Assembly: GCA_017620205.1 (NCBI GenBank) | Contig: JAFZQX010000037.1 | Span: 31,681 to 95,680, forward strand | DNA: 64,000 nt | Direction of reading: 5' to 3' | Origin: Clostridia bacterium | GTDB taxonomy: Bacteria > Bacillota > Clostridia > UMGS1883 > UMGS1540 | In this document: positions 1 to 44,966 of the stretch, in pieces | Numbering within the stretch: the stretch's first letter is position 1 | Layout of the letters: each line of letters opens with the position of its first letter | Notes under the pieces: generated by a model | Databases searched by the model: none | Told to the model about the DNA's origin: nothing | Seen by the model: the letters and a program-made list of their open reading frames with translations, nothing else | Program-made: the position numbers and the translations under genes

Positions 1-1750
1 ACGTATTACGGTGAGCCCATACTATGGCGCTGCGTTGATATTGACAAAAACGGCCCTTTAATGCTCTCCGATAAAATAATTTGCTTAAAAGCGTTTGACG
101 CTTCGGGGGACAACACAAGCGGATCTCACAGCAGAAGCTATAATGAAGGTTTTTACAGACGGGAGTATGGCTCAAACTACTGGGCAGACAGTAATATACG
201 CAGTTGGCTTAATTCAACCGATTCTGAAGGAAACGTAAACTGGGCTTGCGGCAATCCTCCGGATGACGACCATGTCTGGAAAGGATATAATGACTATGCT
301 TCCGAGGCCGGCTTTTTAACAAACTTTACAAGAGGCGAATTATATGCCATAAAGCAGGTAACTCAAAAATCTATCCTTGATGACTATGAGTATTCGGAAA
401 CTGCCAATCCTGATCATCATATATATAACAGCGATATAAACGATGTGCTTCAAAACTATGACACGGCTTTTTCCGAGAAGGTAACGGATATGATGTTCCT
501 GCCGGATGTAAAGCAGATAAACGCTGTATATAATAACAGCGAAATACTTGGAGACGGTTATTATATAGGCGAGCCAACGGCTCAATGCGTTGCCAACTCC
601 GAATATACAGATTCGAGTCTCGGAAACGGAAATAAATGGTGTTCATGGCTTCGCACCCCGGGCACGGAAGGCGCAGGGACTGCCGGCCGCTATGTGGATT
701 ATAACGGCACAGTCATAAGCCATGGTTATTACAGTACCGACTGGATCGGCTGCAACGGTATCCGTCCCGCTTTTTATTTAAACATTGAAACAGCAAGTGT
801 TATAAGCGGTTCGGGAACGGAAGACGATCCCTATGTTGTCAATGCTGTTTTTGCAAACTGGAAGCAGAGTGTGATAAACGTAGGAGAATATCTGCAAATG
901 GGCACATATTACGGCGAGCCGATACTTTGGCGCTGCGTTGATATTGACGAGAACGGACCTTTAATGCTCTCCGATAAAATAATATGCCTTAAAGTTTTTG
1001 ACGCTTCGGGTACTAACACAAGCGGCAGTCATGGGAGAGGATATTACATATATGATGTGCAAGGCTTTTTCAGGCAGAAACACGGCTCTAACTACTGGGC
1101 GGACAGCAATATGCGCTGCTGGCTGAATTCTCTGTCTTCCGCAGGAAACGTAAACTGGGCTTGCGGCAACCCGCCGGACAGAGAACATGTATCGTACAAA
1201 GCTTATGATAACGAAGCGGGCTTTCTGACAAACTTTTCAAAAGGCGAGTTAAATTCAATAAAGCAGGTAACGCAGAAATCTCTGGTTGACGGCTATGAAT
1301 ATTCGGATTCTTCAAATACAATAAATCCGGACTATTATAGATTGGAACATGAAATAGATAATGTAGTACAAAATTATGACACGGCTTTCTCGGAGCAGGT
1401 AACGGATATTATGTTTCTGCCGGATGTAAAGCAGATAAACGCTGTTTATAACAACAGAAGTGTTTTGGGAGATGATTATTACTTAGGCGAGCCAACGGCT
1501 CAGTGCGTTGCAAATTCGATATATACAAACATATCCTTTGCGGCCGGGGGAAAATGGGAAACATGGCTTCGCTCCGCTGACGCAGACTACTGTTTTAACG
1601 TCTGCTTTGTCGACTATTTCGGCTGGGTCTACAGTACCATTGCAGATGACGGAAGCAGAGGCGTCCGCCCCGCGTTTTATTTAAATCCTGAAACAGCGGT
1701 TTTCACAAACGGCGGGGGAACGGAGGAAAACCCTTACACGGTTTCTGCGG
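1..1750 (+). repeat. In-frame tandem duplication with a 903-bp period (unit A 1-903, unit B 904-~1750). It may continue upstream of the window.
   Basis: Nt 1-110 and 904-1013 are near-identical (acgtattacggtgagccc... vs acatattacggcgagccg...). The protein units align along their whole length. Confidence 0.85.
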
Positions 1751-2064
1751 AAACATCTAATTGGAACGAAGGTATTTCGGCTGAAATCAAAGAGATTCAA
1801 GAGGAAGATGAAAGCCTTATTGTAACGGCGGAAATTGAAAGCTTTTTAGAAAACGCGGAGAACGCGCTTTGCTTTTTTGCGGCGTATGACGAAAACGGAA
1901 AGCTTATCTGTGTTTACTGCAAAGATGTGCCTCTCAAAGTGTTTGGCAGGGCGGAAAGCTTAAAGCTTATCGCGCCTTTAAATACTGCTTCATATAAGCT
2001 TATGCTTTGGAACAATGACATGCAGACGTTATTACAAAAGCCGATCTCCGGCGAAATTAAATAA
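1..2064 (+). CDS. Secreted/surface repeat protein, 5'-truncated by the window edge. It has two tandem ~301-aa DUF6273-like modules plus a C-terminal tail domain.
   Basis: Frame 1 is open from base 1. TYYGEPILWRCVDIDKNGPL precedes the track ATG at 61 and recurs at nt 904. The stop is TAA at 2062-2064, followed by a hairpin terminator. Each unit ends in WLR[ST]...G[IV]RPAFYLN, which I associate from memory with DUF6273-type modules. Confidence 0.7.
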   Translation, partial: TYYGEPILWRCVDIDKNGPLMLSDKIICLKAFDASGDNTSGSHSRSYNEGFYRREYGSNYWADSNIRSWLNSTDSEGNVNWACGNPPDDDHVWKGYNDYASEAGFLTNFTRGELYAIKQVTQKSILDDYEYSETANPDHHIYNSDINDVLQNYDTAFSEKVTDMMFLPDVKQINAVYNNSEILGDGYYIGEPTAQCVANSEYTDSSLGNGNKWCSWLRTPGTEGAGTAGRYVDYNGTVISHGYYSTDWIGCNGIRPAFYLNIETASVISGSGTEDDPYVVNAVFANWKQSVINVGEYLQMGTYYGEPILWRCVDIDENGPLMLSDKIICLKVFDASGTNTSGSHGRGYYIYDVQGFFRQKHGSNYWADSNMRCWLNSLSSAGNVNWACGNPPDREHVSYKAYDNEAGFLTNFSKGELNSIKQVTQKSLVDGYEYSDSSNTINPDYYRLEHEIDNVVQNYDTAFSEQVTDIMFLPDVKQINAVYNNRSVLGDDYYLGEPTAQCVANSIYTNISFAAGGKWETWLRSADADYCFNVCFVDYFGWVYSTIADDGSRGVRPAFYLNPETAVFTNGGGTEENPYTVSAETSNWNEGISAEIKEIQEEDESLIVTAEIESFLENAENALCFFAAYDENGKLICVYCKDVPLKVFGRAESLKLIAPLNTASYKLMLWNNDMQTLLQKPISGEIK

Positions 2065-2065
2065 C

Positions 2066-2097
2066 AAAAAAATGCGGAGCTTTTGCTCCGCTTTTTC
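2066..2097. terminator. Bidirectional intrinsic terminator between convergent genes
   Basis: The hairpin gcggagc-tttt-gctccgc (2074-2091) is flanked by an A-run upstream and a T-run downstream. Confidence 0.7.
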
Positions 2098-2123: not shown

Positions 2124-4724
2124 TTATCCATTAATCAAACCGTATTTAAGCTTAATTCTCTCAATCTTCTCTATCATCGGTTCCGCTATAAACCACAGGA
2201 AAAACGCAGTTGAGGCGGCGTGAATCATGTCAAACGGAAAGCCCGATATATAAGACGCCAAAATCATGTCCTTATTAGGGTTTGGCTGAAACATAATAAT
2301 TGCCGCGGGGTTCATTATGGCACCGTATATAATTGCCGCGAAAATCCCGAACAGGCAAAGCGAAAGCTTTGTTTTTTTTATTATACCCTTTTTGCAAAGC
2401 ACGCCTGAAAGAAAGCCTATAATGCCGAAAACAAACATCTGCCACGGCGTCCAGGGTCCCTGCCCGAAAACCATGTTTGAGGCAAACGCGGTTACAGCGC
2501 CTACCAAAAAACCGATTTCTGAGCCGAGGCACACGCCCGAAATTATAATAAGCGCCAAAACGGGTTTAAACTGCGGCAGCATGAAAAAAGCCGTTCTGCC
2601 CGTCGCGCCGAGGGCGCATAAAACGCTGATTAAAACTATTTCACGCGCGCCCGGATTTCTGTTTTCAAAAAACAGAGAAAATGGAATAAGTGTTTCAATT
2701 ATTATTAAAAAGCTTATAAAAAGATACTTTCTGTCGCCTAAATGATATACGCCTATATATATTGTAAAAGGCACGGCAAGCAAAAACAAAAGCGCGGCAA
2801 CTATTGTGCTTTTTTTAAGCTTCTGCGTTTTTTGAAACTGACTTTTAGAAACCTTAAATTCCTTTTTTGGAATAAAACAAATAAATGTTATGCTAAGCAG
2901 TATTGCCGCAAAAAGCTGAACTAAGTTTATGTCTATTGAAAGCATTTCTTTTGCCTGAAGTATCAGCAAAAAAACAAAAGAAAAAAAGCTTATAAGTCCA
3001 AGCGCGGTTTTTAAAGGCGCGCGTTTTTTGCGGCTTGTTATTTCCTCTTTTTCAAAAGTAATATTCTTTGAATAATCTTTTTTTTGTGTTTTATTTTCCT
3101 TTATTTCTCCGCCGAAAGCTTTTATAATATCGTCCGCCAAAAGGGCAGAGGGCAAAATGTCTCTTGCCATTCTGTTTGCCGCGGTTGTGTAAAAGCTTTT
3201 GCCCGCGAAAAACAGTTGCGGCGCGTCGGAAGACACTATCGCGCCGTCAAAAAACATGGCGCACCTGTCTGCGTATTCCGCGCAGAAATCAATATCGTGC
3301 GAAACTATAACAATTGTTTTTCCGTCACCTTTAAGCCTACAGAGAATCTCCGCGAATGTCTTTTTAAAGCTTGCGTCAAGCCCTTTTGTAGGCTCGTCTA
3401 AAAGTAATACGTCAGGCGACAATAAAAGCAGCTTCGCAAAAGCCGCCCTTTGCTGCTCGCCGCCCGACAAATCGTACGGGTGGAAGGCTAAAAGGTCTTC
3501 TATGCCGCAAAGAGCACAAACGCTTAAAACGCGCTCCTTTTTCTCTTCTTCCGTTATTTTTTCGTCGCGGAGCATATCCATAAGATCAAGATAAACAGAG
3601 GCTTTGGTAAAAAGCACCTGCGGGTCCTGCGGCAAAATATTAATCTTTAAATTGTTTTCGTTTATAACCTTTCCGCGGTACGGTTTTAAAACGCCGCCAA
3701 TCACCCCGAGCGCCGTCGTTTTACCTACGCCGTTGCCGCCGAGGAGAGCAAAAATTTCGCCTTTTTTAATTTTAGCGGAAAGACCTTTTATTATGTCTTT
3801 ACCGTTTTTTTCGTATCTGAAATGTATATCGCGAAGCTCTATCACCGTTTCGCCGGATTGTCCTTCTGTATGCACGATTTTACTTTCGTCTTTTTCATGC
3901 GTTTTTGCGTATTCGGAAAGCCATGCTTTACCGTCCCTGACAGTTATGGGGGATAATGTCTGCTTATCAAGTGATGCGTGTACTTTTATCGGCGCCGGCA
4001 GTGCCCAAAACATTTCGTGGTCAAAAAGCAGTTTGCCGATATTCTGCGGCGCAGTATCCGCCAAAACCTTACCATCATCCAAAACCCATACTCTGTCTGA
4101 AAGCGGCAGAGCTTCTTCAAGGCGGTGTTCGGATAATATAACTGTTGTGCCTATCTCTTCGTTAATTCTTTTAAGAGTTTTTAAAAACTCGGAAGCGGCT
4201 ATGGGGTCAAGCTGGGAAGTCGGCTCGTCGAGCAGTAAAACCTCAGGCTGCATAACCATAACGGACGCTAAATTAAGTATCTGTTTCTGACCGCCCGAAA
4301 GGTCTGCTGTTTTTTTGTGAAACCAATCCGATATGCCGAAAAATGAAGCCGTTTCGGAAACCCTCAGGCGTATTTCGCTTGTGGGAAAGCCGAGGCTTTC
4401 AAGACCGAAAGCCAGCTCATGCCAAACCTTGTCCGTAACTATTTGGTTTTCTGGGCTTTGCGATACAAAGCCTATTTTAGCAGCTTCATCGCGCGCTTCA
4501 AGTAAAGATATATCTTTATTTTGAAATAAAATACTGCCTTCTTTACTGCCGTGCGGAGAAATGCTCGGCTTTAATAGCCGCAAAAGCGTTGTCTTGCCGC
4601 AGCCCGATTTTCCGCACAACGCTATAAACTCACCTGCGTTTACATTTAGAGTCACAGATGAGAGCGCCGTATTGTCCCTTGCGGGGTATGTAAAGCTTAA
4701 ATCTTTTATGCTGTACGTTTCCAT
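2124..4724 (-). CDS. ECF-type ABC transporter: duplicated ATPase (EcfA-EcfA') fused to a C-terminal multi-TM, S-component-like domain
   Basis: There are two full ABC cassettes: Walker A GKSGCGKTT and GGNGVGKTT, signatures LSGGQKQ and LSGGEQQ, and Walker B LLLDEPT twice. About 300 aa of hydrophobic helices follow. The C-terminal ~170 aa resemble ECF substrate-capture proteins. The start overlaps the ecfT stop by 19 nt. Confidence 0.8.
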   Translation of the reverse strand: METYSIKDLSFTYPARDNTALSSVTLNVNAGEFIALCGKSGCGKTTLLRLLKPSISPHGSKEGSILFQNKDISLLEARDEAAKIGFVSQSPENQIVTDKVWHELAFGLESLGFPTSEIRLRVSETASFFGISDWFHKKTADLSGGQKQILNLASVMVMQPEVLLLDEPTSQLDPIAASEFLKTLKRINEEIGTTVILSEHRLEEALPLSDRVWVLDDGKVLADTAPQNIGKLLFDHEMFWALPAPIKVHASLDKQTLSPITVRDGKAWLSEYAKTHEKDESKIVHTEGQSGETVIELRDIHFRYEKNGKDIIKGLSAKIKKGEIFALLGGNGVGKTTALGVIGGVLKPYRGKVINENNLKINILPQDPQVLFTKASVYLDLMDMLRDEKITEEEKKERVLSVCALCGIEDLLAFHPYDLSGGEQQRAAFAKLLLLSPDVLLLDEPTKGLDASFKKTFAEILCRLKGDGKTIVIVSHDIDFCAEYADRCAMFFDGAIVSSDAPQLFFAGKSFYTTAANRMARDILPSALLADDIIKAFGGEIKENKTQKKDYSKNITFEKEEITSRKKRAPLKTALGLISFFSFVFLLILQAKEMLSIDINLVQLFAAILLSITFICFIPKKEFKVSKSQFQKTQKLKKSTIVAALLFLLAVPFTIYIGVYHLGDRKYLFISFLIIIETLIPFSLFFENRNPGAREIVLISVLCALGATGRTAFFMLPQFKPVLALIIISGVCLGSEIGFLVGAVTAFASNMVFGQGPWTPWQMFVFGIIGFLSGVLCKKGIIKKTKLSLCLFGIFAAIIYGAIMNPAAIIMFQPNPNKDMILASYISGFPFDMIHAASTAFFLWFIAEPMIEKIERIKLKYGLING

Positions 4725-5578
4725 CTTTGTGCCTCCAAAATCTCAACCCCGAGGGGGTATATGCAAAGCAGAAAATATGCTGCAAAAAAACTAAGATTCA
4801 AATACGAAAAGCCCGCGCCGTAAAGCGAGGGTATATATCTGAAAGACATAAAGCCCGCTATTCTGCCTGCCAGAACATACAGCCCCAAAAGCAAAATAAC
4901 AGCAAGAGCTTTTGTGTCTCTTTTGTCAAATTTATAAATGGAAAAAGCGGTTCTGCCGCGCAGTCCGTAGCCGCGGCCTTTCATGCTGTCCGCAGTTTCG
5001 ATAGAGTTTTCAAGTGCCCATGTTGTGGCGGCGGACAAAACGGAAAGACCGTTTTTGGCGCGTGCAAAAATACCGCCGTTTTTACTGCCGCGGCCTATGC
5101 CTTTTTGCGCCGCGGAAATCATGCGGATTTGAGATATAAACCTCGGCACAAATCTGAGCGTCATTGAAAGGAGGAGAGATAGGGAGGGCAGTATTCTCCC
5201 GAAAAGATAAATAAACTTATCGCTTGTCATAATCTCCGTATAGCACGAAAACCAAAGTATAACGGAAGCTATCATAATGCCCGTTGCGAGACCGTATATT
5301 ATTGATTCAAGCGTCAACGGGTTTCCACTCGGAAGATAGCCTAAAACAGTAATGCCCGCGTGGTTAAACGCGGGATTTATAAGCGCCGTTGCCAAAAAAA
5401 CGGGCAGCACAAACAAAAGCTTTTTACCGCTGCCGAGGAAGTAGGTGTAAAGCATACTTCCTATAAGCGAAAAGCCGAGGCACACGGGGTGCATAAACGT
5501 TACTGAAAAGCAAATTACAAATAAAAAATATATGAAATTAACTATAGGGTGAAATGTTTTAAACTCATTCTGTTTCAT
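4706..5578 (-). CDS. ecfT: ECF transporter transmembrane (T) component, EcfT/CbiQ family
   Basis: This polytopic membrane protein sits immediately upstream of the ECF ATPase. I chose the start MKQNEF (ATG at 5578) rather than the track ATG at 5617, and it overlaps the upstream stop by 14 nt. The family call rests on context and general similarity. Confidence 0.7.
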   Translation of the reverse strand: MKQNEFKTFHPIVNFIYFLFVICFSVTFMHPVCLGFSLIGSMLYTYFLGSGKKLLFVLPVFLATALINPAFNHAGITVLGYLPSGNPLTLESIIYGLATGIMIASVILWFSCYTEIMTSDKFIYLFGRILPSLSLLLSMTLRFVPRFISQIRMISAAQKGIGRGSKNGGIFARAKNGLSVLSAATTWALENSIETADSMKGRGYGLRGRTAFSIYKFDKRDTKALAVILLLGLYVLAGRIAGFMSFRYIPSLYGAGFSYLNLSFFAAYFLLCIYPLGVEILEAQRWKRTA

Positions 5579-6365
5579 TTTTTCTACCGTTTTTTGGCTG
5601 TTCTTCGCCGCCAACATCTTTACCTAAATCGCAGGTGTAAACCCATTCTATTTTGTCGCCGGACGATACTTTATACTGTGAGCAGCCGTAGTTTGGAAAC
5701 ACGCCGTTTACTTTATACATCCAGCCGGAAAGATCGCCGCAGTCAAATTCGTATAGGTTTCCTATACCTTCTATATATGCGCTTCCGTACATGGGAGCGT
5801 TTACAAATTCCATGTGTATTTTGTTAAGTTTCATTTCACGCTGTAAAACGTTAAAAACGCTTTCGCCCGGATTGAATTTCACACGTCGTTCCTCATAAAT
5901 TATGCCGTTTTGCGGAACTAAATCAGCTTTTCCGTCACGAAGTGAGGGCATATTGTTTAAAATAGTATCACAGCGCACCGAAAGCGTGCAGTAAGGCTCG
6001 GTTTGCGGTTCGGGCGCAGCTTCTTCGGGCGGGGCGGAAACTGCGGGCGTTTGCGGAACTTCTGCGCTTTGGAGTACGTCGGGCGCATTTTCTTCCGCTT
6101 CCGCAATTGGGTTATCTTCAGACGGAGGCTCTTGCGTTTCCTCCTGCGGTTCGGGCGAGGGGACTTCGGCGTCTTCCGCTGCCGAAGGATACTCTGCCGC
6201 AGGCTCTGAAACATCTGCTTCGCCGGTGTTTAATTCTGTTTTTGTTTCGCTGACGGTGAAATTTTCTTTATTTGCGGTCCGGGGGAGATTATACGCTGCC
6301 AAAAGCACTATAACCGCAAGTAAGGCAAAAACCGAATTGCGAATTAAAACTTTTCTGTTTTTCAT
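5565..6365 (-). CDS. Membrane-anchored DUF4430 (transcobalamin-like C-terminal domain) protein with a Pro/Glu-rich linker
   Basis: It has an N-terminal TM helix (VFALLAVIVLLAAY), a long PE-rich spacer, and a C-terminal module ...GWMYKVNGVFPNYGCSQYKVSSGDKIEWVYT typical of DUF4430. The ATGA start overlaps the upstream gene. Confidence 0.75.
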   Translation of the reverse strand: MKNRKVLIRNSVFALLAVIVLLAAYNLPRTANKENFTVSETKTELNTGEADVSEPAAEYPSAAEDAEVPSPEPQEETQEPPSEDNPIAEAEENAPDVLQSAEVPQTPAVSAPPEEAAPEPQTEPYCTLSVRCDTILNNMPSLRDGKADLVPQNGIIYEERRVKFNPGESVFNVLQREMKLNKIHMEFVNAPMYGSAYIEGIGNLYEFDCGDLSGWMYKVNGVFPNYGCSQYKVSSGDKIEWVYTCDLGKDVGGEEQPKNGRKNETE

Positions 6366-7933
6366 AAAAGATTTGCCTTTCCGAGCATTTTATAAACCAT
6401 TTCCGCGATTTCAGCCCTTGTTACGGCTTCGCGCGGGTTTATGTAAACTACGCTTGTATCAAGTATCTTTTCGCGGCAGCAAAACGCCATATCGTTTTGC
6501 GCCCAATCGGAAATATCGGTATAATCGGGAAACTCAGATAAATAATCCAAAGTGTTATACATAGACATATCGGTGTCCAGTCCGCAAAGCGCTGCGGCGC
6601 GGCAAAGCATAACCGCCGCTTCTTCGCGCGTTATGGTGCCTGAGGGGTTAAACTCCGTTTCCGACACGCCTTTTACTATTCCGTATGAATACGCCGTGCC
6701 GACATAAGGATAAAACCAGTCGGCTGTATTTACGTCCGCAAACGCGTTTGTCTGCTTTTGGGGAAGTGAAAGCGCCGAAACGGTAATTGTCGCAAACTGC
6801 GCGCGCGTCATGGTGCCGGAGGGCTCAAATGCCAAATCCGTCATGCCGTTTATTATGCCGCGCGATGCGAGCGTTTCAACTGCTGTTTGACAATCTAAGC
6901 CTTTAATATCTTCAAACGTCTTACCTTCATATTTTATCACGGAAATTGACACATCGTCAAGCTTTCCCGAAAGGCCTTCGCTTTTTTTAGGTTTGGGCGC
7001 GTCACTCATGTCGAATATCGACGGCTTGTTTTGAGAGAGCCTTTCAGCCGCCGCCAGAGAATAAAGGCACTGCTCTGTTGTCATAAGGCTTGGCGCGTCC
7101 TCGTCCGCCGTATGCGAAAAGCCGCCGTCTTTTTGGAATTTTGTGAGAAAATCGGGAATGGTGCTGCCGTTTTTTATAAAGCGGCTGTCGGTATACGGAA
7201 TGCCGAGTTGGGAGATGCATAAAAGCACCTGCGCCGCGCTCTCGGCATTTTCCGTGCCGAAGCTTTCGTATCCGCCGCTTGATGTTTGCACTGCGGAAAG
7301 GAAGGAGATGCCGCGCTGTATAGCGGAGCTTACATTTTCGTTGTTTTTATAGGGAGCAAAAGCGGTTAAAACCATGGCGGTTACATCAACATCTGGAGTA
7401 TCATTATCTTTTGTAAGCGCAAAACCGCCGTCTGGAAGTTCCAAAGAAAGAATGTAATCTACATAGGTGCTTTTTATTTGGTCGTCTCCGAAACCCGCAC
7501 ACTGCATTGCGATAAGCGCCCATACGGGGCCGTTTATGCCCTGCCATACGGTTTTGTCAAAATCGAGAAGCGGTGCGGTCAAATCGTAACCGCCTATGTT
7601 TTTGGGGTCTGCTCCGATAGATGAAAGCGCAATAACGGCGCGTGAATATTCCGTATATTTCTTGTCATGCAAAACGCCGTTTGCGTCTTTAACCGTGCCC
7701 GTCAGCCGATCTATATAGCCTTTAAAGTATTCTTCGGGCATTTCCCTTCCGCACCGTGCGAGAGAGAATATAGCCCATTCTCCGCCTACAGAGCCGAAAG
7801 AGGGAGCTTGAACATTTGACGATACATATGCTGCCGCACCGTCTGTTAAAGCGGAAATATCTGCGGCGGCTTCCGCAGAGAAGCCGCCGAGAATTATTAG
7901 TAATGAGAGAAAAAGTGATAACGCTTTTTTCAT
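6362..7933 (-). CDS. Secreted alpha/alpha-toroid (prenyltransferase/SQCY-like repeat) protein with C-terminal SLH domains
   Basis: The signal peptide is MKKALSLFLSLLIILGGFSAEAAA. Repeats LPDGGFAL, SSGGYESFG and KDGGFSH are typical of alpha6/alpha6 toroids. The C-terminal SLH repeats include ...ASRGIINGMTDLAFEPSGTMTRAQFA and ...GIVKGVSETEFNPSGTITREEAA. Confidence 0.75.
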   Translation of the reverse strand: MKKALSLFLSLLIILGGFSAEAAADISALTDGAAAYVSSNVQAPSFGSVGGEWAIFSLARCGREMPEEYFKGYIDRLTGTVKDANGVLHDKKYTEYSRAVIALSSIGADPKNIGGYDLTAPLLDFDKTVWQGINGPVWALIAMQCAGFGDDQIKSTYVDYILSLELPDGGFALTKDNDTPDVDVTAMVLTAFAPYKNNENVSSAIQRGISFLSAVQTSSGGYESFGTENAESAAQVLLCISQLGIPYTDSRFIKNGSTIPDFLTKFQKDGGFSHTADEDAPSLMTTEQCLYSLAAAERLSQNKPSIFDMSDAPKPKKSEGLSGKLDDVSISVIKYEGKTFEDIKGLDCQTAVETLASRGIINGMTDLAFEPSGTMTRAQFATITVSALSLPQKQTNAFADVNTADWFYPYVGTAYSYGIVKGVSETEFNPSGTITREEAAVMLCRAAALCGLDTDMSMYNTLDYLSEFPDYTDISDWAQNDMAFCCREKILDTSVVYINPREAVTRAEIAEMVYKMLGKANLL

Positions 7934-7942
7934 TATTTCACC

Positions 7943-10900
7943 TTATTTATTTAAAAGATTAAAGAAACGCATGAGTAGTGTTGCAGCCTGTGCGCGCGTA
8001 AGTGTTGTTTTGGGTGAGATGAGAGTATCGGTCATACCCGTAATAATGCCTTCGCCAACGGCCCATTTTATGCCGTCTTCCGCCCAGCTGCTTATGTCGT
8101 TTTTATCTTCAAAATCACTTAAATCAGCGTAGTTTTCCTCAAAGCAATCTTTGAATTTTGCATAGCGCGAAAGAATAAGTGCCGTCTGCTCGCGCGTTAC
8201 TTTTTCACCCGGTGCAAATTCCGTGTCGCTTATGCCGAGGATTATGCCGTTTGCTTCGCCCCATGCGACGGAGTCAAAATACCAATCGTCTGCGGAAACG
8301 TCGCTGAATTTGCAATCCGTTGCCTTTTCATATTTTCCGTCAAGACGGTATAAAACGGTAACGAGCATAGCGCGCGTCATTTCGGTATCGGGCTCAAAGT
8401 TGTCGCCCGTGCCTATCATAAGACCGTGCTCATAGCAGTATACTACAGCGTCATGGAACCAGTCGCCTTTTGATACGTCATCATAAATCTTATATACGGC
8501 AGCCGTAGCGTCGGGGCCTTTTTCCCACTTTGCATACAGAGTTATATTATTTACGATCGGCTCGTTTATGTCAAATTCTTTTGTAAACTCTTTGTCGGTA
8601 AACCAGCCTTCAAATGTATACCCCTTGCGTTCGGGGTCTGCAACGAAAGACATTTTGCCGCCTTTGTCAACCTCCAGAACGGGATATTTTTCGCCGCCGT
8701 TTGTTTCAAACGTTACTTTGCACGTGTTTGAAAGTGTTGTTCCGCCGGACGAAGATGACCTTTTCCAGGCTTCGGAGCCCGCCTCTTCGGAATAGTCGTC
8801 CGTATAGAACCATGTTACCGTGCAGTTTTTGGAAAGAGAAGTATCGCGGCAGCTCTTTGTACCGGCCTTGCCGTCAACCTGGAAGAGCCAGCCTGAATTC
8901 GGACCGTGATCAAATTCAGCGTCGTTGCCGATAGATGATATATATCCGTATGTTTTTTCTATATAGTCTATATTGTTTTCCGTTAAAATAAGATGAAGCG
9001 CGTCAAATACAGTCTGACCTTTGGAAAGAGTAACGGTTCCGCTTGCGAGAGAGGTATATTCGGAAGCGTTTTTCTTATATGTGTAAGCGCCTCCGCATTT
9101 GGATTTGTCATGAGTTAAAACTTTAATTTTAACGCTTATATCGCTGCTGGAATCTGATGAAGACTTGCTGCTCGGGAGCGATACGTTAACTGTTTTCGCT
9201 GTATGGTTTGTTTCTTCTTCATCTGTTACCGTAACAGTACCTTCTGCCGTTTTGTAGCCGCTTTTTTCTGCGGTGTAGTTATATGTGCCCGCGGGCAAAT
9301 CGTATTTGCCCTTTGAAACGGCTTCCTGTCCTTCAATAGTTAGTTTTGCGCTGTCAGGAATTAAATTAAATGTAACGGGACATCTCTCGGCCCATGAAGC
9401 CTGAGCCGTGTTTTTGGGGTTATCCGAAAAATCATAGATGTTTGAGCCTAAAAGCTCGTTTGCAACAAGACCGCGGAAGCCCTGCTCCGTGCCGAAGCTG
9501 TTATTAGTCGGCGTAAATCCGTCAAGCGTATCGGAAGCATAATTTACGAGACCGTCCAAAACGCTGTTGTTGTCTGTTTTAAGCTCCGCGCCGTCAATGC
9601 CGTAAGCTGCGAGAGCCGTAAGTGCAAGGCCTGTTGAGGAAGCGTTTCCGAAAGAGCCGTCCGCTGCCTGCGCGCCGCGAAGCTGTTCTATCGTTTCATC
9701 AACTGCTGCTTTTACGTCTTCGTTTTCGTTATAAAACGGTGACAGGGCGAGGAGCATAGCAGCCGCCGTATCAACGCCCCATGTGTTATCCTGCCAAGCT
9801 TTTTTTTGTTCTACGGCGGAGTTTATAAGGTAGTCCGTGCCGCTTTTATCTAAGTAATCCTCATCCTCGTTCATAGCCAAAATAACGTAGGGGAGAGTAT
9901 ATATATTTGTGACCGCGGCGTTTTCTTCGTCAATCAGAGCCTGAAGCTTTTTAACTAAGTTTACTGTGCGGAAATCAGATGTTTTTATGTTTTCGGGGTC
10001 AAAACCCAAGGCGCGGAGCGCGATTATATATTTTGCAATGTCGCCCGCTTTTGTTGCTTCGTCCGCCGCGGGTATCAGTTTATCGAGATATTCCTGTACC
10101 TGTTCATCGGACAAAACGTTTTCCGTGTCGGGGAAGGCTTTTTTGTATGCCGCCAAATCTGCCGCGAGCCAGGGCGCGTTCATATCGTCCGCTATACCGC
10201 TTTCGGCGTATTTTGCGGCAATGTTATGCATAATTTCAAGCGCTGACGGAGCTTCTGTTACGGTTACTTCACAGCTGTCCGAAAAACCGCCGTCGTTTGT
10301 TTTGGCAGTTATTGTAGCCGTGCCCGCTTTAACGCCCGTTACAACGCCGCCTGATGAAACGCTTGCCGTTTCATCGTCTGACGATTCCCATGTAACGCTC
10401 TTGTCGGCGGCGTCTGCAGGTGCTATTTCGTAGCCTATAGCTTTGCTTTCGTTTACATAAACGGATAATTCGCTGTCAAGAGTTATACCTGTAACCGCTA
10501 TGGGCGTGCCGACAGATACGGTGCACGAAGCGGGAACTATGGGAGCGTTTGCGTTTTTGGCAACAACCGTGTATGTGCCCTCTTCGGGGAAAGTAAGCGT
10601 AGCTTTGCCTTCTGCATCTGTTACGGCTTCAATACCGTCCAGTTCCAAAACACTGACTGCGGCGCCTTCGCATGGAACAAAAGCGACACCGTTATCTGAG
10701 GTCCAAATCGCTTTTGAAAGCGTAAATTCCGTCTCCGTGGCTGCAGGTGTTGAATATTCGTCATATTCAAATTTAGTATAAGTGTCAGCCCAGGAAGCGG
10801 TGTCTTTATATACAAAAGCATATATAAAGTCGCCGGCTGTCACTTTATCGGTAAGAGACCATGCTGAGGTGTGATTCTGATAATACCCGTAAGCGTAGCT

Positions 10901-11962
10901 TGTATCGCCCCAAAGCTTTGATAATGATAATCCGTAACCGTTGTCGGCCGTTTCATATCCGTGAGCGTCATCTGCGTAGGTGTCGTGCGCAGCGGAGAGC
11001 ACATCGTCTATTGTATATTCGCGCTTGCCCGATACAGTTACGGGCAGACGGTTAAAGCTTTTGCCGTCTTTTGCCGTAACAAAATCTGCGTTTTGGCTTA
11101 TTGTTACATACGCCGTCATAACGTTTCCGATATTAACCGGAGTGGGGTTCATTATGCAAACGGAAATGTAATCTTCCCCGTTTGCCATTACCGTAAGATA
11201 ATATATACCGGGCTCCATATCATCGGGTATCGGGATAGCAGCTTCTCCGTCCTCGTCCGTATAAACGTCCTCTATTTCGGTTAAACCGCCGTCCTCGCTT
11301 ACCCATGCAAATACTGCGTCTTCTATTTCTTCGCCGGATTCTTTAAATTCTTCCGGTGTTTTATACAAATAGCCGCCCATTACCATAGAGCCTGTAACGG
11401 TTACTTCCAAGTCCTCTCCGGGGAAAGCGGAAAGGTCTCCGTCTATCCATGTGTAAGTGTCGGCCCAGTATGAATCTTCATAAAAGAAGAAGTCAACCTT
11501 ATCGCCTGAAACGAGTTTATGCGTTGTATAAGTAGTGCCGTTGTAGCCGCTGCCGTAAGGGCTTGCGGTACCGTCATTGGGATAGCCTTCGTTTACAAGA
11601 AAACCGCCGTAGTAAGTGCTTGACGATATGCCGAATACTTTTGTTGCGCTGCCGTTTGAAACTTCAAGATAATCGCTTACTGTGTCTTTTGTAAAGTCAT
11701 TACCGTAAATAATCTCGTGCTCTTTTATAAGCGCGTCAAGAACGGAAACGCCGTTAACTTCGTCCGCAAAGCCGTATTTTTCGGATAAATCACTTGATAC
11801 CTCTAATGTCTGAGGAGGCGCCAGAAAGCCGCCACTGAGCTGTGCAACAGTATAAACATCTGCGGTAACGGCTTTAGCAGGTTCCGCAAAAACGTTTATA
11901 CTGCACATGCCTAACATCATAGTAAGTGCAAGTACCAGTGATAGTAGTTTCCTTGTTTTCAT
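7943..11962 (-). CDS. 1339-aa S-layer-anchored multidomain surface protein: DUF4430-like modules, Big_2, alpha/alpha toroid, PEGA-like domain, DUF4430, Flg_new repeat and SLH x3
   Basis: I set the start at MKTRKLLSLVLALTMMLGMCSINVFA (ATG 11962, RBS aaggaag). The track's 56-codon extension would overlap the riboswitch platform. Motifs: Big_2 (VTWESSDDETASVSSGGVVTGVKAGTATITA), toroid (ADGSFGNASSTGLALTALAAYG), DUF4430 (GPNSGWLFQVDGKAG...TVTWFYTDDY), Flg_new (YTFEGWFTDKEF...ITLYAKW), and three SLH repeats at the C-terminus. Confidence 0.8.
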   Translation of the reverse strand: MKTRKLLSLVLALTMMLGMCSINVFAEPAKAVTADVYTVAQLSGGFLAPPQTLEVSSDLSEKYGFADEVNGVSVLDALIKEHEIIYGNDFTKDTVSDYLEVSNGSATKVFGISSSTYYGGFLVNEGYPNDGTASPYGSGYNGTTYTTHKLVSGDKVDFFFYEDSYWADTYTWIDGDLSAFPGEDLEVTVTGSMVMGGYLYKTPEEFKESGEEIEDAVFAWVSEDGGLTEIEDVYTDEDGEAAIPIPDDMEPGIYYLTVMANGEDYISVCIMNPTPVNIGNVMTAYVTISQNADFVTAKDGKSFNRLPVTVSGKREYTIDDVLSAAHDTYADDAHGYETADNGYGLSLSKLWGDTSYAYGYYQNHTSAWSLTDKVTAGDFIYAFVYKDTASWADTYTKFEYDEYSTPAATETEFTLSKAIWTSDNGVAFVPCEGAAVSVLELDGIEAVTDAEGKATLTFPEEGTYTVVAKNANAPIVPASCTVSVGTPIAVTGITLDSELSVYVNESKAIGYEIAPADAADKSVTWESSDDETASVSSGGVVTGVKAGTATITAKTNDGGFSDSCEVTVTEAPSALEIMHNIAAKYAESGIADDMNAPWLAADLAAYKKAFPDTENVLSDEQVQEYLDKLIPAADEATKAGDIAKYIIALRALGFDPENIKTSDFRTVNLVKKLQALIDEENAAVTNIYTLPYVILAMNEDEDYLDKSGTDYLINSAVEQKKAWQDNTWGVDTAAAMLLALSPFYNENEDVKAAVDETIEQLRGAQAADGSFGNASSTGLALTALAAYGIDGAELKTDNNSVLDGLVNYASDTLDGFTPTNNSFGTEQGFRGLVANELLGSNIYDFSDNPKNTAQASWAERCPVTFNLIPDSAKLTIEGQEAVSKGKYDLPAGTYNYTAEKSGYKTAEGTVTVTDEEETNHTAKTVNVSLPSSKSSSDSSSDISVKIKVLTHDKSKCGGAYTYKKNASEYTSLASGTVTLSKGQTVFDALHLILTENNIDYIEKTYGYISSIGNDAEFDHGPNSGWLFQVDGKAGTKSCRDTSLSKNCTVTWFYTDDYSEEAGSEAWKRSSSSGGTTLSNTCKVTFETNGGEKYPVLEVDKGGKMSFVADPERKGYTFEGWFTDKEFTKEFDINEPIVNNITLYAKWEKGPDATAAVYKIYDDVSKGDWFHDAVVYCYEHGLMIGTGDNFEPDTEMTRAMLVTVLYRLDGKYEKATDCKFSDVSADDWYFDSVAWGEANGIILGISDTEFAPGEKVTREQTALILSRYAKFKDCFEENYADLSDFEDKNDISSWAEDGIKWAVGEGIITGMTDTLISPKTTLTRAQAATLLMRFFNLLNK

Positions 11963-11987
11963 TTGTATTACTTCCTTTCTTTGCGCA

Positions 11988-12018
11988 TAAAAAAATGCAC
12001 TGATTAAAATCAATGCAG
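11988..12018 (-). terminator. Intrinsic terminator in the riboswitch expression platform
   Basis: The minus strand reads ctgcattgatt-tta-atcagtgca followed by T7. It lies between the riboswitch aptamer and the RBS/ATG at 11962. Confidence 0.65.
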
Positions 12019-12127
12019 CGGAGTTTTCCTGCAAAATACGCAATTTAAATGCAACACAAATAAGCATACCCAAAAGATATACTTCCTTTAAATCTGCTAT
12101 TCCTGTGTAAAAACACGTACGGAATAA

Positions 12128-12318
12128 CATCAGAGCAGGTCTTTTGGCTCGTGCCTTTAACCGTTTTACACCATGCCTTCTCAGTTTCCCAATGACCGGC
12201 TTTCACCGACGGCGTAAAACACAGAAACACATACAGCGACCGTTATCGCAGAGGATTCGCACCTCTTTCCCTTTTCACCCCATGCGCCTGAGCCGTGCTC
12301 TTTACGGCGCATAAGACA
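12128..12318 (-). promoter_or_regulatory. Cobalamin (B12) riboswitch
   Basis: The minus strand contains GGTGAAAAGGGAAAGAGGTGCGAATCCTCTGCGATAACGG ... GTCATTGGGAA ... GAGCCAAAAGACCTGCTC. These match the conserved GGGAA / GGTGCGAATCC core and a B12-box-like element (consensus AGCCAGGAGACCTGCC). Boundaries are approximate. Confidence 0.8.
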
Positions 12319-12348: not shown

Positions 12349-12377
12349 ATTATAACAATATTTGCTTTTTCAGTCAA
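12349..12377 (-). promoter_or_regulatory. Sigma-A-type promoter for the riboswitch operon
   Basis: The minus strand reads TTGACT, a 17-nt spacer, then TATAAT, just upstream of the riboswitch. Confidence 0.6.
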
Positions 12378-13907: not shown

Positions 13908-14048
13908 ATTATTATATTTTAAAAAAGGAAGTGAATTTGCATGGACGCTCATCCCGGGCGAAGTATTAAAAAAATCAATACTATATTTGGGCGGTCATGG
14001 GAAATTTCCGTTTATACGTTTTTTGTGCGCTGATTTTTTTGCACACAG

Positions 14049-14080
14049 AGACCGCCTTTTAAGAAGGAGGTCTTTTTTTT
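14049..14080 (+). terminator. Leader attenuator/terminator that sequesters the mgtE RBS
   Basis: The stem agaccgcc / ggaggtct (one mismatch) includes the AAGGAGG RBS and is followed by T8 running into the TTG start. Upstream gggcggtc (about 13990) can pair with gaccgcc as an alternative antiterminator. Confidence 0.55.
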
Positions 14081-15413
14081 GTATGAAAAAATAAAAGAAA
14101 TGCTTGAAAACCGCAAGTTTTTAAGCATAAGACAGCAGCTTTGCGATATGAACATGGTCGACGTTGCAACGCTGCTCGAAGAATTTGACGAAGATGACGC
14201 TTTGCGCGTTTTCAGACTCCTGCCTAAAGAAGAAGCTTCGGAAGTATTCAGTTACATGCCGAAAGACAAACAGCAAAGCATTGTTGAAGCTATAACCGAC
14301 CGTGAGCTTTCAGGCATTATTGACGAGCTTTTCCTCGATGATACTGTCGACCTTATCGAAGAAATGCCCGCGAATGTCGTTAAAAGGCTTTTGAAAAACA
14401 CAAGCCAGGAAAAAAGAAAGCTTATAAACCGTTTCCTGCAGTATGAGGAAGACTCCGCGGGAAGCATTATGACAATAGAGTTTGTGGACCTAAAAAAGGA
14501 AATGACGGTTCCCGAAGCTTTCGCGCATATCAGGAAAACGGGCGTTGACAAAGAAACAATTTACACGTGTTACGCAACAGACGCGAACCGTGTGCTTGAG
14601 GGCGTTGTAACGGTTAAGGATCTGCTTTTGGCTGAGGAAGGTCAGAAAGTTGGCGATATTATGGATACAAACATAATATTTGCCTATACCGACGATGATA
14701 AAGAAGACGTTGCCAAAAAGTTTCACAGATATGACCTTATGTCGCTTCCCGTTGTTGACAAAGAACGCAGACTTGTCGGAATTATAACGTTTGACGATGC
14801 TATTGACGTTATCCAGGAAGAGAACACGGAAGACTTTGAAAAGATGGCTGCTATCACGCCGTCCGATGAGCCGTATCTTAAAACAAGGGTAATAGATCAC
14901 GCAAAGCACCGCGTGCTGTGGCTTTTATTGCTCATGGTTTCCGCAACGTTTACAGGCGCTATTATTACGGGCTTTGAGAATGCGTTTACAGTTGTGCCCG
15001 CGCTTGTTGCGTTTATTCCGATGCTAATGGACACGGGCGGCAACTGCGGCAGCCAGTCGTCAACGCTTATTATCCGTGGTATGGCTTTGGGGCAGATCAG
15101 AGGCAGAGACGTTTTTAAAGTATGGTGGCATGAAGTTTCCGTTGCCGTAATAATAGGCGCGGTGCTCGCGGCTTTTAATATCGCGAGAATATATCTGTTT
15201 AACGGTCATAATATAAAGCTTGCCTGCACCGTATCGTTCAGCCTTTACGCAACAGTAATTATCGCACAGTCGATAGGCTGTCTGCTGCCGATAGGCGCGA
15301 AAAAGCTCGGACTTGACCCGGCCGTTGCGGCGGCGCCTATAATTACTACGATAGTAGACGCTTTTGCTTTGACCGTATATTTTTCAATAGCAAAGATGGT
15401 TATAGGAATTTAA
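14079..15413 (+). CDS. mgtE: Magnesium transporter MgtE
   Basis: It has an N-terminal MgtE_N-like acidic domain, CBS-pair region and C-terminal TM domain with MDTGGNCGSQSS. The start is TTG, 9 nt after AAGGAGG. Confidence 0.9.
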   Translation: MYEKIKEMLENRKFLSIRQQLCDMNMVDVATLLEEFDEDDALRVFRLLPKEEASEVFSYMPKDKQQSIVEAITDRELSGIIDELFLDDTVDLIEEMPANVVKRLLKNTSQEKRKLINRFLQYEEDSAGSIMTIEFVDLKKEMTVPEAFAHIRKTGVDKETIYTCYATDANRVLEGVVTVKDLLLAEEGQKVGDIMDTNIIFAYTDDDKEDVAKKFHRYDLMSLPVVDKERRLVGIITFDDAIDVIQEENTEDFEKMAAITPSDEPYLKTRVIDHAKHRVLWLLLLMVSATFTGAIITGFENAFTVVPALVAFIPMLMDTGGNCGSQSSTLIIRGMALGQIRGRDVFKVWWHEVSVAVIIGAVLAAFNIARIYLFNGHNIKLACTVSFSLYATVIIAQSIGCLLPIGAKKLGLDPAVAAAPIITTIVDAFALTVYFSIAKMVIGI

Positions 15414-16400: not shown

Positions 16401-19400
16401 CTAATTATATACTATTATATCACCAATGTCAAATAAGTAAATGAATTTTTCGGAAATTTTTGAAAAATACTTCTTGTGAAGAACGTCTGCATATGCGTCA
16501 ATCTGCGTTTTGTAGCGGTTTTTAATTTCTTCTTTGTCGCGCACTTTATCCGTTTTAAAATCGATAAGAACAATGTTGTCTCCTTCGAAGAAGTAGCAGT
16601 CAATAATGCCTTGAAGCAATATGCTCTCGCCGGCGTCATCGGGATTTTTAGTGAGAACAGACGCGCTGCAAAGTGATGTGAAAGCTTCTTCTCTGTAAAC
16701 TTTATCGGCGTTTTTAAGCCTTTGTCCCAAAGGGGACTCAAAAAACGCAAGTATTTTTTGGGCGGGTATATATTTTGCGGCTTCCTCCGTTATTATACCG
16801 TCCGCTTTAAGGCCTTCAATATGGTTTTTTACATCGTCTTCGGAATTTACGTTTAAAGGTATGGTCTGCATAACAAAGTGAATAAGCGTTCCGATTTCCG
16901 CCGCCGACATTTTGCCTTCTTTTTGCAGAAATACGGGCGTTTTAGGCTCGGGTGAACGGAACAGTTCAAGCGAGTCATCCTCTGCGATATTTGAAATGCG
17001 CTTAAGCTCTGTAACCGTAACTTTTGAAGGCAGGGTAAGGAGCCTTTCATATCCGTACTTGAATTCTGCGGGTTCAACTGTCAGGCCTTTGTTTCCCGGC
17101 CCATCTTCCGCTTTGCAAAGCTCGGGAAGAGTTGAAATATTATATGTTTTTATTACTGCCTTTGAAGAGAGTCCGCTTTCGTCGAGAGGATTAAGGCAGG
17201 AGAGTATGCACTGCAAATATGTTACCGGCTCAAACTCGTTTATTGAGATAAGCGCCGCGCCTTCTTTTGCGGCGTTGAGCGTCGCTCCCAGACTTGAGAC
17301 CGCGCCTGTTATGATAAGCCGTTCTTTTGCGCGCGTTAATGCAACATATAAAACTCGTATCTCTTCCGACGCCTCGTCTTCTCTGCACATGATTTTAACG
17401 GCGCGCCGTATGGGTGTTTCGTATTTTGTTCTAAACTTTAAATCGGTTGCATAAAGCCCCAAACCGAGTTTTTTATGAAGCGGCAGGCCTTTGGAATTAA
17501 CAGAAAGCCTATGTCCCGCGCCCGCCAGAAATACAATGGGAAACTCAAGACCTTTGCTTTTGTGTATCGTCATAATGCGGACAATACTGTTTGAAGATGT
17601 TATCGCGTGAGCTTCACCGCTGTCACTGCCGCGGCTTTTGAGGTTGCGCATATAGTTTAAAAAGCTGTACAAACCCTTAAACGACGACTTTTCATACATT
17701 CTCGCCTTTTCTACCATAAGGCGCAGGTTGGCCGTCTTTTCGTCGGCGTTTATGCCGCCTGATACAATATCAATATAACCGCTGTCGGTTAAGAGAAAAT
17801 CTATAAGTTCGCTGCACGCGAAACGTGAAACGGCTTCGCGCCATGTCTGAAGCTTTTTCAAAAAGCTTTTGCATTTAAGGCTTAAATCGCCTTCGCCTTC
17901 CGCGCACTTGCATACGGCAAAAAAGTATTCGCTGTATCTGTCATACGTACGTATTTCGGCGAGTTCGTTTTCAAAAAAAGAGAACATGGGCGAGCGCATA
18001 ACTGCAATAAGCGGAATGTCATTTATTGGGTTATCAACTATTTCCAAAAGCGACATTAAAAGCTTTATCTCAACCGTTTCAAAATAGCTTTCCCCGGCTT
18101 CGCTGTAAGCCGGAATACCTGCGTCAAGCAGAGCACGCAGCATGGTCGGCTGACCGTTATTACTGCGCAGGAGAATAGCAATATCGGAATAGTTTATTTT
18201 TCTGAATTCTCCTATGGAATTATCGAAAATCTGCTCGTTTTCTATAAGCTCTTTTATTCTTGACGCGATAACACGCGCTTCGGCTTCGATATCCGAGGGA
18301 TCTTCCTCGCCGGTGTCCTGATTTTCCTCGGTTTTTGTTGTTTCAATTATGTGTAATTCCGCTTCGGGCGTGAGATCTTTGGGGTATGAGGCCGCAAAAC
18401 ACAGCGCTTCACTTTCGTCATATTCCGTGCCGCCCGTTTTCTTGGTCATTATATTCTCAAAAATAAAGTTTACAAAATCTATAACGCCTTTGCAGCTTCT
18501 GAAATTTTTGGAAAGAATTATTTTTCTTTGCTTTTCCGATTCTCCCTCACGGAAAAGCTCTTTTTTTGAGGCAATCAAAGCGGGATTTGCCTGACGGAAC
18601 CCGTAAATACCCTGTTTCATGTCGCCTACCGTAAAAGTATTCGGCCTTCCGCTTCTGGCTCCGCCTATAAGACTGAAAATATACTCCTGGGTTTCATTGC
18701 TGTCCTGGTATTCGTCAACATAAATCTCGTCAAACATACCTTGCTGAATATCCGCAATCTCGGAAGGGTTTCCGTTTTCGTCTTCGAGGAGCGAAATGCA
18801 GATATGCTCCATATCTCCGAAATCTATAACGCCGCGTTCACGCTTTAAAGCTGTGTATTCTTCGGTAAAGCACCGTACTGCATACGCAAGACCTTTTGCC
18901 GTTTTATATGCGGTTTTAATATCCTCCGTGCATTCTTCACTTGCTTTTTCAAACGCTGAGAGAACGGCGTTGACCGAATCTTTCACGGATTTTCTAACTT
19001 TGCTTATATAGTCTTTTGCACTTCCGGAGTATTCGGAAAAAGAGAACCTGCTTACAAATATCTGTTCCGAAAGGGCGGCGCGGAGAGTATCCCTGCCTGC
19101 GTTATCGGCCGTTAAAGCGAGAATATTATTTATTTCGGTTCTTAGATTTTGCGCTTCAGCGTCGGTTTCGTTCATGTTGAAAATGGAGATAACCGAGGCA
19201 AGTTTTTGGGCGTCGCGCTTTAAGCGGCGGTGCGCATTCTCAAGAAGAATTCTTTCGCATTCGGAATTATCATATTCCTCCGCAGTATTTATATCGTATT
19301 TCAAAACGGATTCGTCAAGCCATTTTTCGGGGTGCGGCATACTTTGCGCATATTTATATACCTGCAGCATCGCGTCAAGCGCAGCCTTGTCGCTTCGCGG

Positions 19401-29773: not shown

Positions 29774-29907
29774 ACAAAAAGCGGGCTGTAAAAGCAGTCT
29801 GCTTTTTGTATTTTTGACAAAAAGCATTGAAAAGTATCTTTGAAAGTGATATAATTACAATGAAAAAAGTTTTATAATTGTTGAATAAAAAACGGAGGGA
29901 TGTAATT

Positions 29908-44830: not shown

Positions 44831-44966
44831 TATGTCATTTATGTTACAAATGCGGTTTTTTAGGTTTTTTTTAACAATTATTTAATATTCACATTTTATA
44901 ATATAAGTAAAATAAGGATATTGTAGGGTTTTACTGAAAGATAAATGTTTGGAGGAGATGAAATTT

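Follow-up and report, generated by a model that had tools for sequence, protein, structure and literature searches.

A candidate split transcobalamin-like pair beside a CbrT-type importer in a cobalamin-riboswitch operon of Clostridia

Vitamin B12 is a limiting and contested nutrient in gut and sediment communities, and its capture outside the membrane of Gram-positive bacteria is essentially uncharacterised, unlike capture by BtuG and BtuH in Bacteroides. We analyzed a stretch of 64,000 nucleotides from a Clostridia bacterium (assembly GCA_017620205.1, contig JAFZQX010000037.1, positions 31,681 to 95,680 of the forward strand; hereafter the window), in which five consecutive minus-strand genes lie behind a predicted cobalamin riboswitch. 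Two of these genes overlap and encode, respectively, an exported alpha/alpha toroid with three S-layer homology (SLH) repeats (523 residues) and a membrane-tethered beta-grasp domain of the DUF4430/SLBB type (266 residues), and they are followed by the genes of an energy-coupling factor (ECF) importer. We propose, with a probability of roughly 0.55 for the statement as a whole, that the split toroid and the tethered beta domain jointly catch corrinoids outside the membrane for the CbrT-like ECF importer. Taken separately, it is highly probable that the operon constitutes a B12-uptake accessory system for an ECF importer, while the closing of the two chains on one ligand is a tentative proposal with slightly less than an even chance.

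The five open reading frames (ORFs) run 12130..7943, 7933..6362 (523 residues), 6365..5565 (266 residues), 5617..4706 (303 residues) and 4724..2124 (866 residues), and the last four overlap, the ATG of the 266-residue gene with the stop codon of the 523-residue gene as ATGA, and the following pairs by 53 and 19 nucleotides as the ORFs are drawn. A promoter-like site, recognized by its match to the consensus (12349..12377, minus strand; TTGACT, a 17-nucleotide spacer and TATAAT with a TG extension, 11 of 12 positions matching), stands directly 5' of a cobalamin riboswitch aptamer (RF00174; 12117..12338, minus strand), which reaches 59.5 bits where the gathering score is 31.5 (E 3.2e-12, over the full model 1-189) and is the sole Rfam match across the window. 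Between this aptamer and the first start codon sits a terminator-like hairpin (11996..12017, minus strand; a 9-bp stem followed by TTTTTTT), the probable expression platform of the riboswitch, and another hairpin (2074..2091, minus strand; a 7-bp stem with 6 G-C pairs and a T-run), terminator-like on either strand, ends the operon 33 nucleotides past the stop codon of the last gene. Because the riboswitch, the promoter-like site and the hairpins bound the five genes, they make up a single B12-controlled transcription unit of approximately 10.3 kb, which B12 is predicted to shut off via the riboswitch. The mechanically drawn ORF of the first gene reaches 168 nucleotides too far 5' (to 12130), crossing the expression platform, and the public gene call for its protein (1374 residues) also begins too early; we reassigned the start to the ATG at 11962, which has the ribosome-binding site GGAAG and lies just 3' of the hairpin, such that the protein likely begins MKTRKLLSL, with the signal peptide MKTRKLLSLVLALTMMLGMCSINVFA.

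On its modeled fold, the beta half is specifically transcobalamin-beta-like. The 266-residue protein (5565..6365, minus strand) consists of an N-terminal membrane helix (residues 4-26, nucleotides 6356-6288), an acidic, disordered Pro/Glu linker (residues 28-124, nucleotides ~6284-5994) and a DUF4430/SLBB domain (residues 125-255, nucleotides 5993-5601), and AlphaFold2 (AF2) renders it as a helix (4-25), a low-confidence coil (26-120) and a folded domain (121-255). The domain matches DUF4430 (PF14478) at E 5e-20, a Pfam model into which the C-terminal domain of vertebrate cobalamin binders falls as well (PMC4350170). In Foldseek comparisons with the PDB, its 19 best matches were all transcobalamin, haptocorrin, intrinsic factor or the R. 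gnavus DUF4430 protein 3u7z, with a TM-score of 0.58 over the isolated human transcobalamin beta domain (5no0/5np4), and the protein thus carries a C-terminal beta-grasp domain of the transcobalamin type. Since PDB searches with the sequence and with the family profile returned no transcobalamin, but only noise from the linker and membrane helix, the relation came to light only through Pfam and fold comparison. Five cysteines of this domain (C126, C132, C209, C228 and C245, within 5601-5993, minus strand) are invariant or nearly so across the beta-domain family, and could form disulfides or provide a thiol that ligates cobalt as in BtuM.

The 523-residue protein (6362..7933, minus strand) begins, by reading of its sequence, with a typical Sec signal peptide (residues 1-24, nucleotides 7933-7862; MKKALSLFLSLLIILGGFSAEA, then AAD after an AXA site), continues as an alpha/alpha toroid (residues ~25-305, nucleotides 7861-7019) and ends in three SLH repeats (residues ~335-523, nucleotides 6931-6365; Pfam E 2.4e-27); the SLH domain of B. 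anthracis Sap, likewise of three repeats, aligns with residues 335-513 (3pyw/6bt4, E 1e-12 to 1e-13). The tandem repeats together with the Sec signal mark an SLH-anchored wall protein, with binding to a wall polymer predicted. An AF2 model of residues 1-330, based on an alignment of 48 relatives, is an all-helical toroid with a mean predicted local distance difference test score (pLDDT) of 92.6; among its 26 Foldseek matches in the PDB at E <= 1e-3 are the transcobalamin structures 2bb6, 8ixt, 2v3n, 4zrp and 7qbe (TMq 0.53-0.59), as well as drimenyl-diphosphate synthases, squalene-hopene cyclases, farnesyltransferase beta and unsaturated glucuronyl hydrolase. An earlier, sequence-only reading of this DNA had assigned the 523-residue protein a signal peptide, an alpha/alpha toroid and SLH domains, which agrees with our results down to the exact ORF, and had described the overlapping gene as encoding a membrane anchor, a Pro/Glu-rich linker and a DUF4430 domain, all of which we recovered, with the linker at 97 residues, not the ~110 stated there. 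Proteins of the two types carry the public names 'S-layer homology domain-containing' and 'DUF4430 domain-containing'.

Both proteins have paralogous domains in the product of the first gene of the operon, a giant SLH-anchored surface protein of ~1339 residues from the ATG at 11962 (7943..11962, minus strand), in which Pfam recognizes Big_2, a toroid of the Cobalamin_bind type (PF01122, E 1e-13, residues 681-863), CarboxypepD_reg, DUF4430 (PF14478, E 4.5e-13, residues 1038-1110), a Flg_new repeat and three SLH repeats (E 8.9e-30). Over 324 residues, the stand-alone toroid shares 26% identity with that of the giant protein (E 2e-13), and the stand-alone DUF4430 domain is 33% identical to its counterpart (E 1e-11). 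The link of the 523-residue toroid to transcobalamin appears to lie in this paralogy, together with the genomic context. Two regions of ~200 residues in the giant protein (within residues 88-545; 10496-11869, minus strand) are without a confident family, with only weak SpaA and CarboxypepD_reg hints in Pfam, and at least 13 related loci have giant proteins with similar regions. Taking them for divergent beta-grasp/DUF4430 domains, as segments such as KLVSGDKVDFFFY may suggest by eye, was unsupported by hhalign with the beta-domain profile, which aligned 27 columns at E 0.017 and 7 columns at E 0.074.

Downstream of the pair, all parts of an ECF-CbrT type importer were identified, namely EcfT, two ABC ATPase domains and a CbrT-homologous S-component, under predicted B12 control through the RF00174 element of 59.5 bits. 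EcfT, a CbiQ-family transmembrane component (4706..5617, minus strand; PF02361 E 1.1e-5, 25.6 bits against a cut-off of 25), is encoded by an ORF that overlaps the end of the DUF4430 gene, and its start, M1 or M14, is uncertain. The 866-residue EcfA-EcfA'-S fusion (2124..4724, minus strand) matches ABC_tran twice, ECF_trnsprt at E 2.3e-8 and the ECF_ATPase models, and comprises EcfA-EcfA' (residues ~1-530), hydrophobic segments (residues 571-686) and the CbrT-like S-component (residues 694-840, nucleotides 2645-2205), for which the only significant PDB sequence match, of weak similarity, is 6FNP_A of ECF-CbrT (E 3.6e-5). The hydrophobic segments (residues 571-686) are four extra ones placed between the second ATPase domain and the S domain, and it is difficult to reconcile an S-component that is covalently fixed with the exchange and expulsion of S-components proposed for shared ECF modules. 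Separate genes encode A-A' and S in several related loci.

Relatives of the 266-residue protein are numerous, with more than 7,289 at 90% clustering and, at 50% clustering, 7,105 clusters at E <= 1e-3 and 1,491 at E <= 1e-30, most of the 50%-clustered relatives being 200-370 residues long with the domain at the C-terminus. A scan with one genome per species detected a DUF4430 relative in at least 588 genomes, and we compared the gene order of the best 80 species-level loci among them, which derive from Clostridia metagenome-assembled genomes, Oscillospiraceae, Paenibacillus, Pelotomaculum, Sedimentibacter, Papillibacter, Formimonas and C. thermobutyricum, by mapping domain queries derived from the window onto every ORF. 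In 72 of the 80 loci the DUF4430 gene has a toroid gene as its immediate upstream neighbor (66 of these toroids with SLH), at a median gap of 10.5 nucleotides and with an ATGA overlap in 17 loci, and EcfT follows downstream in 77 of the 80, mostly with the A-A'-S fusion. The look-ups anchored on the toroid gave the same picture: for six toroid relatives picked irrespective of context, including that of the complete Aminipila butyrica genome and two without SLH, genes for DUF4430, CbiQ and ABC-ABC/S were found immediately downstream in all six. A conserved four-gene cassette with overlapping frames, very common in Clostridia, is therefore made up of toroid, beta domain, T and A-A'/S, and the co-occurrence of the gene pair across genomes, which the sequence-only reading had put forward as something to check, holds in both directions. 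The giant protein is optional across loci and is divergently placed in Paenibacillus.

The remaining eight loci comprise five with truncated or frameshifted sequence and three (L010, L064 and L072) that have a beta-propeller surface protein upstream. In these three, a PQQ_2-type protein of ~920 residues replaces the toroid behind a cobalamin riboswitch (L010 6910-10702, L072 6892-10456, L064 2-1124), and the DUF4430 protein is a lipoprotein with the lipobox FSGC. The giant proteins encoded at L056 and L066 also contain segments that resemble this beta-propeller protein. The replacement recalls BtuG, the beta-propeller B12 binder of Bacteroides.

Control by B12 is likewise widespread among the relatives. 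Rfam placed a cobalamin riboswitch before the cassette in six of seven loci tested (L075 being negative), and an nhmmer profile seeded with Rfam-verified riboswitches, complemented by Rfam checks of profile negatives, detected one in 52 of the 80 loci. As ~14 of the 80 loci are too short upstream to judge, a riboswitch is present in roughly three quarters of the assessable related loci, and together with that of the window this bears out the B12-regulated context on which the sequence-only reading had relied. In three Paenibacillus loci (L019, at 8024-8220 and 18059-18257; L037; L079) there are two cobalamin riboswitches each, one before the toroid gene and one before the divergent giant DUF4430-SLH gene; since a riboswitch directly precedes the toroid gene, the four-gene core of these loci is under B12 control by itself. 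L073 has, just downstream of its cassette, a c-di-GMP-I riboswitch and a pemK RNA motif (14031-14116 and 14684-14764), which are probably unrelated. As predicted regulatory elements, the riboswitches would fix the class of the ligand, which is a new element here.

These observations can be assembled into a mechanism in which the extracytoplasmic proteins would capture scarce corrinoids and pass them on to the S-component; a capture front end would in this way be added to an ECF transporter, a type that normally works without soluble binding proteins. Acting as a two-chain transcobalamin, the toroid and the beta domain would close only with ligand present, the membrane tether would hold the beta domain, loaded or empty, near the transporter, and the beta domain, once parted from the toroid, would hold its ligand less tightly, which would favor release to CbrT. 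The isolated human transcobalamin beta domain was solved with cyanocobalamin bound (PDB 5np4). That such a binder can assemble from separate pieces is made plausible by this structure and by proteolytic fragments of intrinsic factor, which Fedosov and co-workers reportedly found, in 2004-2005, to reassemble around cobalamin.

A number of observations weigh against the joint action of the two chains, or against its being a rule. By its domain content the giant protein is a complete one-chain alpha-plus-beta transcobalamin-like unit beside the split pair, and with such a unit in the operon the stand-alone toroid may serve another step; since the first gene carries a Cobalamin_bind toroid and DUF4430 together, the split pair is one of two transcobalamin-like units, and only the 1339-residue neighbor has both domains on one polypeptide. 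The claim of the sequence-only reading that the alpha and beta halves are encoded as separate genes is consequently correct for the pair and incomplete for the operon. Its further claim that the two proteins are the halves of transcobalamin fares well for the beta domain and less so for the toroid, the fold class of which is certain from the model, with transcobalamin as one among several equally good structural matches. Pfam assigns this toroid to SQHop_cyclase_C and Prenyltrans and not to Cobalamin_bind, such that it is not recognizable as an alpha6/alpha6 toroid of PF01122; SQHop_cyclase_C is matched by 48 of 48 toroid relatives and PF01122 by one (E 0.011), and a search of the PDB with the family profile returned SLH proteins and terpene cyclases, and no transcobalamin. 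Tethering to two envelope layers is also not obligatory, as SLH is missing from six of the 72 neighboring toroids and from ~12 of 120 database relatives. Six SLH-bearing partner toroids are paired with linkers of just 12-32 residues. Finally, 16 related loci that were negative with the riboswitch profile were also negative with Rfam, ~13 of them with adequate upstream sequence.

The main rival explanation is a relay of independent binders without closure of alpha on beta, in which the tethered beta domain would serve the ECF importer by itself and the SLH toroid would be a store or sieve for corrinoids in the wall, or a partner of the giant protein. It can draw on the cyanocobalamin seen in 5np4 with the beta domain isolated, on the one-chain alpha-plus-beta protein that the operon itself encodes, and on the stand-alone SLBB proteins, and the paralogous SLBB proteins of one operon, that Burroughs et al. 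(PMC1796856) describe. The three beta-propeller loci also speak for it: they keep the tethered beta domain and the ECF genes and have swapped the toroid, from which it follows that the beta domain can work without this toroid. The conservation of the pair is tighter than a loose relay needs, however, as 72 of 80 loci place the toroid gene directly, and often with overlap, before that for DUF4430 and the converse holds in six of six, even without the giant protein, and the pairing is kept by toroids that have no SLH. We consider such a relay unlikely, at well under an even chance.

A second alternative, in which the ligand is heme or another tetrapyrrole and not a corrinoid, is very improbable. 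It draws on the homologous-looking Lsa1836-1840 cassette of L. sakei, for which heme-uptake phenotypes and the docking of heme between the modeled alpha- and beta-like proteins have been presented (bioRxiv 10.1101/864751). Against it stand the 59.5-bit cobalamin riboswitch in the leader and those in most related loci, the B12 S-component CbrT as the sole significant PDB match of the S domain, and the structural matches of the beta domain, all of them corrinoid binders. The idea that the toroid is an envelope enzyme (terpene-cyclase-, prenyltransferase- or glycoside-hydrolase-like) whose adjacency to B12 genes is mere co-regulation appeals to the squalene-hopene and drimenyl-diphosphate cyclases that its sequence matches in Pfam and the PDB and to the conserved motif D-x-D-[IV]-T-[AG]-M, aligned with the squalene-hopene cyclase segment that presumably holds DxDDTA, and we rejected it as scarcely credible because the third Asp of DxDD is replaced by Ile, Val, Thr or Met in 48 of 48 toroid relatives and because the domain is a lone exported toroid of ~280 residues, in contrast to the two-toroid (beta-gamma) architecture of class II terpene cyclases and prenyltransferases, that is carried by Sec export and an SLH anchor far from isoprenoid diphosphate substrates and is a clear paralogue of a toroid matching Cobalamin_bind.

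The proposed joint capture gains further detail from the way in which the beta protein is attached. In its relatives, the uncharged stretch at the N-terminus is 19 residues long at the median (interquartile range 19-20) and is followed by a conserved GG, not AXA, and in 14 of 120 relatives a lipobox replaces it; for these reasons, retention of the beta protein at the membrane, by helix or by lipobox, looks like a selected feature. The uncharged stretch of the window protein is only 15-17 residues, so that it could also be a cleaved signal. The majority pattern of an SLH-anchored alpha and a membrane-held beta protein is in line with the suggestion of the sequence-only reading that the two are tethered to different envelope layers, with the reservation made above that SLH is at times absent. 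The linker of the window protein (97 residues, 39% Pro plus Glu with 21 Glu and 17 Pro, 15 Ala, net charge -22) has counterparts of 12 to 198 residues (median 114) among the relatives, always of low complexity. These linkers are longer where the partner toroid bears SLH (median 125, n=62) than where it does not (47-111, n=5; Mann-Whitney p 0.016), a correlation that we take as a hint only, the SLH-less sample being five related, non-independent cases, and that weakly fits the idea that the linker provides reach.

A far-reaching version of the proposal, which we regard as quite unlikely in this full form, is that many Gram-positive ECF B12 importers depend on two-chain, two-layer capture, in which a wall toroid and a beta domain on an acidic 'fishing line' would close with a corrinoid, the tether would return the loaded beta domain to the S-component, and loss of the toroid would bring about release. 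If true, it would overturn the textbook view of ECF transporters as devoid of extracytoplasmic binding proteins, and the split pair would represent the ancestral, unfused state of animal transcobalamin. A biochemical demonstration of the joint capture itself would provide thousands of genes with a function, would establish dedicated extracytoplasmic binding proteins as something that an ECF transporter can own, and would put to the test the idea that such bacteria were the source of animal transcobalamin; the surprise would be limited, since the conceptual step is already in the literature.

In the rest of the window, positions 16401-58392 are ordinary chromosome of an endospore-forming member of the Bacillota, with genes for AddA/AddB, SpoIVA, SMC, RecG and a 2-isopropylmalate-synthase-like protein; a further SLH protein, with DUF5050, is encoded at 38245-39666, and the large ORFs at 29878-33930 and 44949-46340 gave no Pfam match. 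Two genes converge on the operon (window 1-2064, plus strand), the 3' part (~2 kb) of one for a 1018-residue DUF6273 protein and, just past the window end, one for a 690-residue protein with a Cu_amine_oxidN1 domain, and both neighbors recur on four independent metagenome contigs that encode an identical 266-residue protein.

The sequence-only reading had presented the two-protein topology as a mechanism not known before, and this does not stand, as both B12 scavenging by such proteins (PMC1796856) and hand-off by a split heterodimer (bioRxiv 10.1101/864751) had been proposed. Burroughs, Balaji, Iyer and Aravind (2007, PMC1796856) defined a bacterial transcobalamin-like SLBB clade with stand-alone or toroid-fused beta-grasp domains on surface proteins found in low-GC Gram-positives, noted operons of paralogous SLBB genes with CbiO/CbiQ genes, predicted B12 scavenging, and proposed that animal transcobalamin was acquired from low-GC Gram-positives; a pair of stand-alone toroid and stand-alone SLBB genes, SLH and membrane tethers, a riboswitch and a CbrT-type S-component, as seen in the window, are undescribed in the part of their account considered here. 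Closer in layout are Lsa1836-1840 of L. sakei (Verplaetse et al. 2019, bioRxiv 10.1101/864751), where an exported beta-like protein (Lsa1839) and an alpha-like protein (Lsa1840) were modeled as a heterodimer that hands its ligand, heme, to an S-component. By its description, that cassette shares with the window separate exported alpha- and beta-like proteins next to EcfT, an EcfA-A' fusion and S. It differs in that heme is argued for as the ligand, no riboswitch is described, export signals are given with no mention of an SLH anchor or a long linker, the S-component is a separate protein, and no giant one-chain alpha-plus-beta protein is described. A transcobalamin split in two with hand-off to an ECF importer is a reasonable but tentative reading, already published in outline, and within the library searched we found no paper that joins cobalamin and ECF with S-layer homology or SLH. 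The ECF-CbrT transporter of L. delbrueckii (Santos et al. 2018, PMC5997447; 6FNP) is, as predicted for transport in the window, an ECF importer with a CbrT-type cobalamin S-component, but it was characterized without any extracytoplasmic accessory protein, and it combines a shared ECF module with a separate S-component, whereas in the window S is fused to A-A' through the four extra hydrophobic segments and three surface proteins are encoded alongside.

With animal transcobalamin, intrinsic factor and haptocorrin the window shares an alpha/alpha toroid and a beta-grasp domain, and its beta domain matches these carriers ahead of the rest of the PDB; the animal proteins have both domains on one soluble chain, in contrast to the two differently anchored chains of the window, with a toroid outside PF01122. 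BtuG and BtuH of Bacteroides are surface lipoproteins that capture B12 and belong to riboswitch-controlled uptake loci. They follow a logic like that of the window, in which high-affinity surface binders of corrinoids under riboswitch control feed a membrane transporter, and differ in their unrelated folds (a beta-propeller in BtuG), in their location at the Gram-negative outer membrane and in the TonB-dependent transporter that they serve. Set beside these systems, what is new in the cassette of the window is its anchoring in two layers (alpha through SLH, beta through an acidic linker and either a membrane helix or a lipid), the one-chain paralogue that resides in the same operon, and the scale of the family.

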